Sequence record: MZ234040.1
Reading direction: 5' to 3' (one strand)
Length of the DNA stretch: 64,000 bases
From: Escherichia phage vB_EcoM-G3G7
Under the pieces are notes generated by a model. The model was given only the letters and a program-made list of their open reading frames with translations. It did not search any database and was not told the DNA's origin. A program made the translations under genes and the position numbers. Position 1 is the first letter of the stretch. Each line of letters starts with the position of its first letter. This document shows positions 14,344 through 15,127 of this stretch, piece by piece.

Positions 14344-14924
14344 TGATTAAATTGGTATTCGCTTATTCTCCAACTAAAACGGTCGAAGGCTTTAATGAAT
14401 TAGCATTTGGTTTAGGTGATGGTTTACCATGGGGACGAGTTAAAAAGGACCTCCAGAATTTTAAAGCTCGTACCGGAGGTACAATTATGATTATGGGTGC
14501 TAAAACGTTCCAGTCATTATCTACATTACTTCCCGGTCGTAGCCATATTGTGGTGTGTGACCTTGCGCGTGATTATCCTGTAACTAAAGACGGCGATTTA
14601 GCACATTTCTATATTACATGGGAACAGTATATAACTTACATTTCTGGCGGCGAAATTCAAGTGTCAAGCCCTAACGCACCATTCGAGACTATGCTTGATC
14701 AGAATTCCAAAGTAAGTGTAATTGGCGGGCCTGCTCTGTTATATGCTGCGTTACCTTATGCGGATGAAGTAGTTGTTTCTCGCATCGTTAAAAGGCATCG
14801 TGTTAATTCAACGGTTCAATTAGATGCAAGTTTTCTTGATGATATAAGCAAGCGTGAAATGGTTGAAACGCATTGGTATAAAATAGATGAAGTAACAACC
14901 CTTACGGAATCAGTATATAAATGA
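14343..14924 (+). CDS. frd: dihydrofolate reductase
   Basis: 193-aa [45 protein letters not shown]... matches T4 Frd. Confidence 0.93.
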
Positions 14925-15127
14925 GCAATAAATTAAAAGTTAAGGATGTTCCTAATGCTATGGCCCTTTTTATTTGTCGGCAGATGCATCAAGGGCCTAT
15001 GACACCAAAACAATATCTTAAAGGTGAGCGTTCTTTAGGATATACTCACAAAGCAAAACAAATGGTTAAATTAGGATATAAGCCTAACTTTGCCAAATAT
15101 CCTTCTACATATTCTTGGATGAACTAA
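14921..15127 (+). CDS. 68-aa basic ORF inserted between frd and td (unknown function)
   Basis: ATG overlaps the frd stop (ATGA) and its stop overlaps the td ATG (TAATG); [68 protein letters not shown]. Confidence 0.5.

Follow-up and report, generated by a model that had tools for sequence, protein, structure and literature searches.

The window analyzed here is a 64,000-nucleotide stretch of DNA from Escherichia phage vB_EcoM-G3G7 (sequence record MZ234040.1), in which the genes for dihydrofolate reductase (frd) and thymidylate synthase (td) are separated by a 68-codon reading frame, which we refer to as ORF68, that overlaps both of its neighbors. The features of the locus, in coordinates of the window, are as follows:

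14343-14924, + strand: frd (dihydrofolate reductase), 193 aa, from the ORF list; its TGA stop is part of the ATGA at 14921-14924
14921-15127, + strand: ORF68, with an ATG start; 68 aa, basic, member of phrog_9550
14921-14924, + strand: ATGA, the ORF68 start overlapping the frd stop
15108-15169, + strand: weak predicted RNA hairpin over the Shine-Dalgarno element and AUG of td, from folding; statistically unsupported
15117-15122, + strand: GGATGA, a Shine-Dalgarno-like element for td, read from the sequence, 7 nt 5' of the td ATG
15125-15129, + strand: TAATG, the ORF68 TAA stop overlapping the td ATG
15127-15675, + strand: td exon 1 (thymidylate synthase), 96.7% identical in amino acids to T4 Td exon 1
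15127-15182, + strand: 5' tract of td linked to ORF68 and of non-Tequatrovirus type, from haplotype comparison
15807-16544: I-TevI, within the td group I intron (15676-16688)
about 16689-17003, + strand: td exon 2, 3' of the td intron, with the T4 annotation as comparison

The reading frame and its ATGA and TAATG overlaps, proposed in an earlier note made from the sequence alone, were confirmed from the sequence and the ORF list. The Frd protein of the window is 97.9% identical to that of T4, megablast matches across the region carry the dihydrofolate reductase annotation, and frd matches T4 identically from 14831 up to the ATGA, a stretch of ~90 nt at its 3' end. As the note stated, frd and td overlap directly in T4 (NC_000866), by 4 bp at the junction TATATAAATGAAACAATACC, and the extra segment has the length it gave: the distance from a marker at the end of frd to the start of td is 256 nt in the window vs 50 nt in T4, G2133, and F1, so the indel is exactly 206 bp. 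The direct repeat said to flank this segment is likewise present at the two ends of ORF68 (as AATGA, 5 bp), but it is no target-site duplication, and follows instead from two overlaps that each consist of an ATG and the initial A of a Ser or Lys codon. Farther along, a td group I intron with I-TevI occupies 15676-16688, as in T4; a search of Rfam over 14000-17500 returned no group I intron match at E<=1, the presumed reason being that the endonuclease ORF breaks up the model.

ORF68 is a real protein-coding gene, because its dN/dS is low (0.14-0.28 at a dS of 0.9-1.4, relative to the Klebsiella phage Marfa and Enterobacter phage CIP9 homologs), its residues 1-68 match positions 1-68 of the 68-position phrog_9550 profile (E=2.9e-44, 150 bits), and the remaining frames of the segment are closed, none being open for more than 33 codons. 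The coding signal that the note had proposed to look for in comparative alignments is thus present. A short frame with no canonical Shine-Dalgarno element and no known domain could in principle be a chance opening in an intergenic spacer; the comparative data already refute this reading, which retains a practically negligible probability given that dN/dS is well below 1 where dS is saturated, that a PHROG family matches at full length, that the frame is kept at 60-96% amino-acid identity between genera, and that the fold prediction is confident.

The gene is also already annotated. A megablast search with the junction matched 569 phage records, 135 of them containing ORF68 at full coverage, and in most of the 135 listed it is labeled "hypothetical protein"; overall, ORF68 is annotated in more than 100 GenBank phages. 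Records 100% identical to the window in this search include vB_EcoM-CHD2BS1 and G3F6-G3G6, and tblastn of the protein (237 records, 134 at >=89%) similarly found complete identity with the vB_EcoM-G3F6 and CHD2BS1 proteins, among others. The family is narrow: profile searches over 1.84 billion proteins gave 40 clusters when grouped at 90% identity and, at 50%, 10 true representatives, each 66-108 aa long and none annotated (P0025, a repetitive protein of 1402 aa, was excluded as a low-complexity false positive). Two functional labels found in GenBank are unsupported: "DUF4858" (MZ502379, phage Shinka) has no Pfam counterpart at E<=1 in the window protein or in any of 31 family members, and "flagellar biosynthesis protein", given to the family in a single record, receives no support from domain or family searches. 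Our literature searches found no description of ORF68 or of a polymorphism at the frd-td junction. ORF68 is therefore best described as an ordinary conserved hypothetical gene rather than a new insertion, and the possibility that it is simply a gene of related phages, which the earlier note had treated as counting against its proposal, is borne out in that many relatives have it annotated.

The product of ORF68 is a 7.9-kDa protein with a pI of 10.06 (12 K+R vs 2 D+E) and no match in Pfam, NCBIfam, or the PDB by sequence and profile searches, in keeping with the description of it as basic and lacking a recognizable motif. Once a diverse multiple sequence alignment was supplied, AF2 produced a confident model (pLDDT 84.8) with helices at residues 13-24, 29-38, and 43-49, in which ORF68 is predicted to adopt a small three-helix fold. 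Structural searches with this model returned no match, whether to a helix-turn-helix, to other known DNA-binding folds, or to any other structure; the anti-phage defense models of PADLOC likewise gave no match, and neither a motif nor a fold of a nuclease catalytic domain (GIY-YIG, HNH, seg, or mob) was found. Members of phrog_9550, the window protein included, share an N-terminal MSNK/MKGNK-x-KV motif as well as CRQxHQ and LGYKP. We tentatively suggest, with low confidence, that ORF68 could be an accessory early or middle factor whose binding partner is a nucleic acid or a protein of the host or the phage. It is probably dispensable in laboratory hosts, because T4, T2, T6, and RB69 all lack it.

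The earlier note had taken the T4 junction as the norm from which the window departs, a premise that does not survive a survey of the genus. With the T4 junction as query, 514 records matched, most of them as two segments with roughly 417 bp or 206 bp between them (the latter corresponding to ORF68); 60 of these records, sampled at even steps, comprised about 39 of a second type typified by T2, 13 of the ORF68 type, and 5-6 that are empty, with T4 records making up half of the empty class. The frd-td junction in Tequatrovirus is thus a three-allele polymorphism of presence/absence and replacement. About 65-70% of junctions hold an unrelated 115-aa ORF (as in T2, T6, and RB14), about 22-25% hold ORF68, and fewer than 10% are empty as in T4; at the level of database matches, the T2-type ORF is found in 363 records at >=90% identity, compared with the 134 given above for ORF68. 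The presence of ORF68 is ordinary gene-content polymorphism, none of T4, T2, and T6 carries it, and the textbook ATGA overlap of frd and td is a rare state in which T4 is atypical. In RB69 (Mosigvirus), frd and td overlap by 4 bp just as they do in T4 (GTGTATAAATGAAACAATACC, L032 6384-6387), and an empty junction therefore occurs in at least two genera.

The T2-type ORF (L020 1802-2214 in T2, L031 5925-6336 in T6, and L029 1020-1412 in RB14) is known as "RB32ORF229c" and belongs to phrog_1928. It is bounded by a 9-bp junction repeat, TAAATGAAA (the RB14 record carries the remark "flanked by 9 bp repeat"); spacers of 20 and 45 nt set it apart from frd and td, and 3' of it lie a promoter-like TAGCTTCA...TATAAT element and, for td, a Shine-Dalgarno sequence, AAGG. 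The label "putative homing endonuclease" that it bears in BASEL has no support from Pfam or PADLOC, and a nuclease signature was found neither in this ORF nor in ORF68. Frameshifted copies of both genes occur: in phage 132 (L022 1730-2080) the 115-aa ORF is interrupted by an indel near codon 40, and in Shigella phage SH7 (L004 2001-2156) ORF68 contains an extra A in a run of A residues. These copies are either decaying alleles or sequencing errors.

Beyond Tequatrovirus, homologs of ORF68 adjoin td in Dhakavirus, Marfavirus, and Kanagawavirus, their stop codon again overlapping the td start codon, which brings the number of genera with this arrangement to four. Amino-acid identities to the window for ORF68, Td, and Frd, respectively, are 96%, 90%, and 83% in JS10 (Dhakavirus, a genus in which JS98 likewise carries the gene); 79%, 79%, and 47% in Marfa (Marfavirus); and 66%, 84%, and 49% in CIP9 (Kanagawavirus). 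In view of these td-abutting homologs, ORF68 is an old gene, long resident directly upstream of td in T4-like enterobacterial phages. The overlap itself takes three forms across genera (TAATG in Marfa, TGATG in L011, and GTGA in CIP9 and L012), and for this reason the abutment appears to be maintained in its own right. The gene order is frd-A-B-ORF68-td in CIP9 and frd-B-ORF68-td in Marfa, where all A and B genes belong to phrog_1928 and the A gene of CIP9 shares 44% identity with the T2 ORF (E=1e-30). These orders would fit an ancestral array of small genes with differential loss, which is one possible history. The empty RB69 junction would fit the alternative, in which the empty state may itself be old and the site has been filled repeatedly.

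Large myoviruses, phAPEC8-like ones among them, carry more distant members of the family (about 30-45% identity) within arrays of small same-strand genes of early type, none of them near td. No link to td or to nucleotide metabolism was found in the context of these homologs, and since they lie away from td, no tie between ORF68 and thymidylate synthesis can be claimed. Two of the contigs with distant members, those of P0024 and P0040 (L016 286-669 and L033 206-739), have a gene of the Phage_T4_Y05C family nearby and, about 4.5 kb off on the opposite strand, one for a Tad2-like (anti-Thoeris) protein, a neighbor too distant for any link to the ORF68 family.

Along the frd-ORF68-td region, nucleotide divergence between Tequatrovirus and Dhakavirus, which was also profiled in sliding windows, drops from 21.4% over the final 150 nt of frd to 2.5% within ORF68, then rises to 7.3% across td nt 1-60 and to 24.1% across td nt 61-420. 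ORF68 is accordingly 97.5% identical to the Dhakavirus copies, vs 76-79% for its flanks; within Tequatrovirus, too, it is the less diverse (0.8% vs 2-5% in the flanks, compared with 2.5% vs 21-24% between genera). The start of td belongs to the same block. Among 14 Tequatroviruses compared, ORF68 is perfectly linked to a haplotype at td nt 16-36, defined by TT at nt 16-17, T at 30, CC at 33-34, and G at 36 (window positions 15142-43, 15156, 15159-60, and 15162). The full haplotype is present in 6/6 ORF68-positive Tequatroviruses and 3/4 Dhakaviruses, the exception being IME341, which differs at nt 16-17, and 8/8 ORF68-negative phages of T4 or T2 type have GA, C, TT, and T at these sites. RB69 shares T30, C33, and C34, as well as C45 and C48, without having ORF68, so the haplotype represents a non-Tequatrovirus state and not an adaptation to ORF68. 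On the left side, frd is of Tequatrovirus type up to the ATGA, with only SH7 having the Dhakavirus-type C at -7.

The imported block can thus be placed at ~14918 to ~15182, its right boundary falling at about td nt 48-57, with a precision of ~4 nt on the left and ~10 nt on the right. Because about 50 nt of td were replaced along with it, this pattern indicates patch recombination rather than clean insertion: ORF68 and the adjoining stretch of td were probably imported together as a homologous patch, by means of homology in frd and td, and appear to have moved between genera recently. The direction of transfer was, with modest confidence, into Tequatrovirus, since ORF68 is carried by 4/4 Dhakaviruses vs about 25% of Tequatroviruses, and since diversity is slightly higher in Dhakavirus and SH7 has its one SNP. 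We also observed a second intergeneric mosaic patch in this operon, a strongly divergent internal segment of frd (roughly equivalent to window 14600-14720, with a 3-bp length difference) that is common to SH7 (L004), pSs-1 (L026), phage 132 (L022), and Dhakavirus JS98 (L008); it is absent from JS10 and T4 and is independent of the ORF68 block.

No promoter or terminator was found within 14921-15127 or directly flanking ORF68, and in the 206 bp an Rfam search at E<=1 for RNA elements gave noise alone. ORF68 therefore has the layout of a gene in a coupled operon, overlapping the stop codon of one neighbor and the start codon of the other and lacking its own promoter and terminator, and we infer that it is translationally coupled to frd and td, a potential that the earlier note had rightly seen in the overlaps. 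With the 3' end of frd identical to that of T4, ORF68 begins in exactly the initiation context from which td starts in T4. The GGATGA ahead of td is encoded by Trp-Met codons of ORF68, and TGGATG is kept in 6/6 aligned homologs. The hairpin predicted over the td initiation region has an energy of -16.7 kcal/mol for a 121-nt segment (z = -1.0) and, in an 80-nt construct, of -8.5 kcal/mol vs -4.9 for the identical structure on a T4-td chimera; in alignment it comprises 5 conserved pairs with no compensatory changes and a consensus energy of 0. With this z score, no covariation, and the same td bases in RB69 in the absence of ORF68, we rejected it as evidence of coupling.

Several other readings of the locus have to be weighed against import of a resident gene by patch recombination. 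If a foreign mini-cassette had been inserted de novo at a T4-type ATGA, by illegitimate (microhomology) recombination that duplicated the ATGA, then deleting the 206 bp between the (A)ATGA copies should restore the T4 junction, and it does so exactly; the left edge of the shared block also falls within about 4 nt of the ATGA, empty junctions are known in T4 and RB69, and the distant homologs in unrelated phAPEC8-like myoviruses imply that the family can move between phage groups. We nevertheless consider such an insertion unlikely, as the 50 or so nt of td that traveled with ORF68 are unexpected under a clean insertion, the same td-abutting position recurs in four genera with td-like divergence, and the repeat is just 4-5 bp long and forced by the two overlaps. 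The picture in the earlier note of a small gene cassette slotted into an operon accordingly holds in part: ORF68 is a discrete coding gene, missing from T4, and an exchangeable block, but its position next to td in four genera and its annotation in so many genomes show that it is not a novel insert. The low diversity of the block (0.8% and 2.5%) and its intergeneric spread would also be accounted for if ORF68 were, or rode on, a selfish drive that spreads in mixed infections by double-strand-break repair, whether by assisting a trans-acting endonuclease as its DNA-binding partner or through co-conversion with the td intron and I-TevI, which lie about 550 bp downstream in the window; its site between conserved genes and its short co-converted flank recall the seg and mob genes. 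This we regard as quite improbable. The 68-aa protein has no nuclease motif or fold, and among the phages compared the intron and ORF68 vary independently (JS10, SH7, UGKSEcP2, EcNP1, and pSs-1 have ORF68 but no intron, and T4, T6, and G2133 have the intron but no ORF68); moreover, td between ORF68 and the intron site is of the ordinary Tequatrovirus type, and the tract is thus not continuous with the intron. A separate observation concerns the ORF68-positive phage BYEP01, where td is annotated in two pieces about 258 bp apart (L025 1204-2207), which suggests an intron without the I-TevI ORF.

It is also conceivable that the peptide is irrelevant and that ORF68 serves as a translated spacer or upstream ORF, whose coupling, together with a hairpin masking the translation initiation region, would set how strongly td is translated. 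Overlaps at both ends, an abutment with td that is kept in three forms across genera, and a predicted hairpin that the ORF68-linked td SNPs strengthen would all suit such a role; it is rendered very improbable by the strong purifying selection on the amino-acid sequence, by protein homologs located away from any td gene, and by the weaknesses of the hairpin set out above. A bolder proposal accepts the junction as a swap site (for phrog_1928 genes A and B, ORF68, or none) and supposes that ORF68 swept through Tequatrovirus and Dhakavirus by virtue of a selectable advantage, for example in countering host defense or a competing phage. Such a sweep would explain why the diversity of ORF68 is 3-10 times below that of the flanking essential genes and, if it took place, would point to an uncharacterized class of small, basic, three-helix effector with no fold match in the PDB; we consider it unlikely.

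We favor instead, with a probability of roughly 0.6 for the account as a whole, the reading in which ORF68 is a real, dispensable gene of phrog_9550 that occupies a three-allele junction, was imported in a Dhakavirus-like patch, and is translated by coupling to its neighbors. The reality of the gene, its distribution, the mosaic tract, and the anatomy of the locus are established directly. In the proposed sequence of events, a Dhakavirus-like phage would have supplied the ORF68 allele, or refreshed it, in a homologous patch recombination whose left crossover fell no more than a few nt from the frd stop and whose right crossover fell about 50 nt into td. The gene would be read from the frd-td-nrdA polycistronic mRNA: ribosomes ending at the frd TGA may restart at the overlapping ORF68 ATG, the site that td uses in T4, and those ending at the ORF68 TAA may restart in turn at the overlapping td ATG, aided by GGATGA.

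At present ORF68 stands as one more conserved hypothetical gene, and its direct value is modest. Three points are worth retaining: T4 has an atypical junction, the site is contested by three alleles, and ORF68 and its td tract appear to have moved recently between genera. The T4-centered view is thereby corrected, most T-even phages carrying one of two unrelated small genes between frd and td, and the locus offers a clean, small example of what is probably intergeneric patch recombination, with the translation signals of an operon preserved across the exchange. Should ORF68 prove to be a selected effector, the three-allele series, near-isogenic at the locus otherwise, would be a ready genetic system for finding its target.

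Comparison with known systems places ORF68 as follows. Within phrog_9550 the window protein is an ordinary member, with the same length and conserved motifs and no difference from the family. The T2/T6/RB14 ORF resembles it as a dispensable small gene in the same junction and an alternative allele in the same genus; the protein is unrelated, however, and spacers, a promoter-like element, and a Shine-Dalgarno sequence take the place of the stop/start overlaps, while in CIP9 the two gene types coexist in tandem. ORF68 is like the free-standing homing endonuclease genes (seg and mob, of the GIY-YIG or HNH type) in its site between conserved genes, its patchy presence among close relatives, and a flanking tract of donor type as left by co-conversion, but it differs in having no nuclease domain and only 68 aa. 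It cannot be classed among them, as shared location and patchiness are necessary, not sufficient. The motifs of coupled overlapping pairs (ATGA or TAATG, as in T4 frd-td) are identical in the ORF68 locus, where two overlap steps in series replace the single step of T4 and where coupling is predicted from the overlaps. Finally, ORF68 resembles the PeSL mobile cassettes of T4-type phages, which are likewise small accessory ORFs shuffled by recombination; those cassettes are flanked by an early promoter and a stem-loop, of which ORF68 has neither, and its exchange appears by contrast to depend on homology within the frd and td coding sequences.
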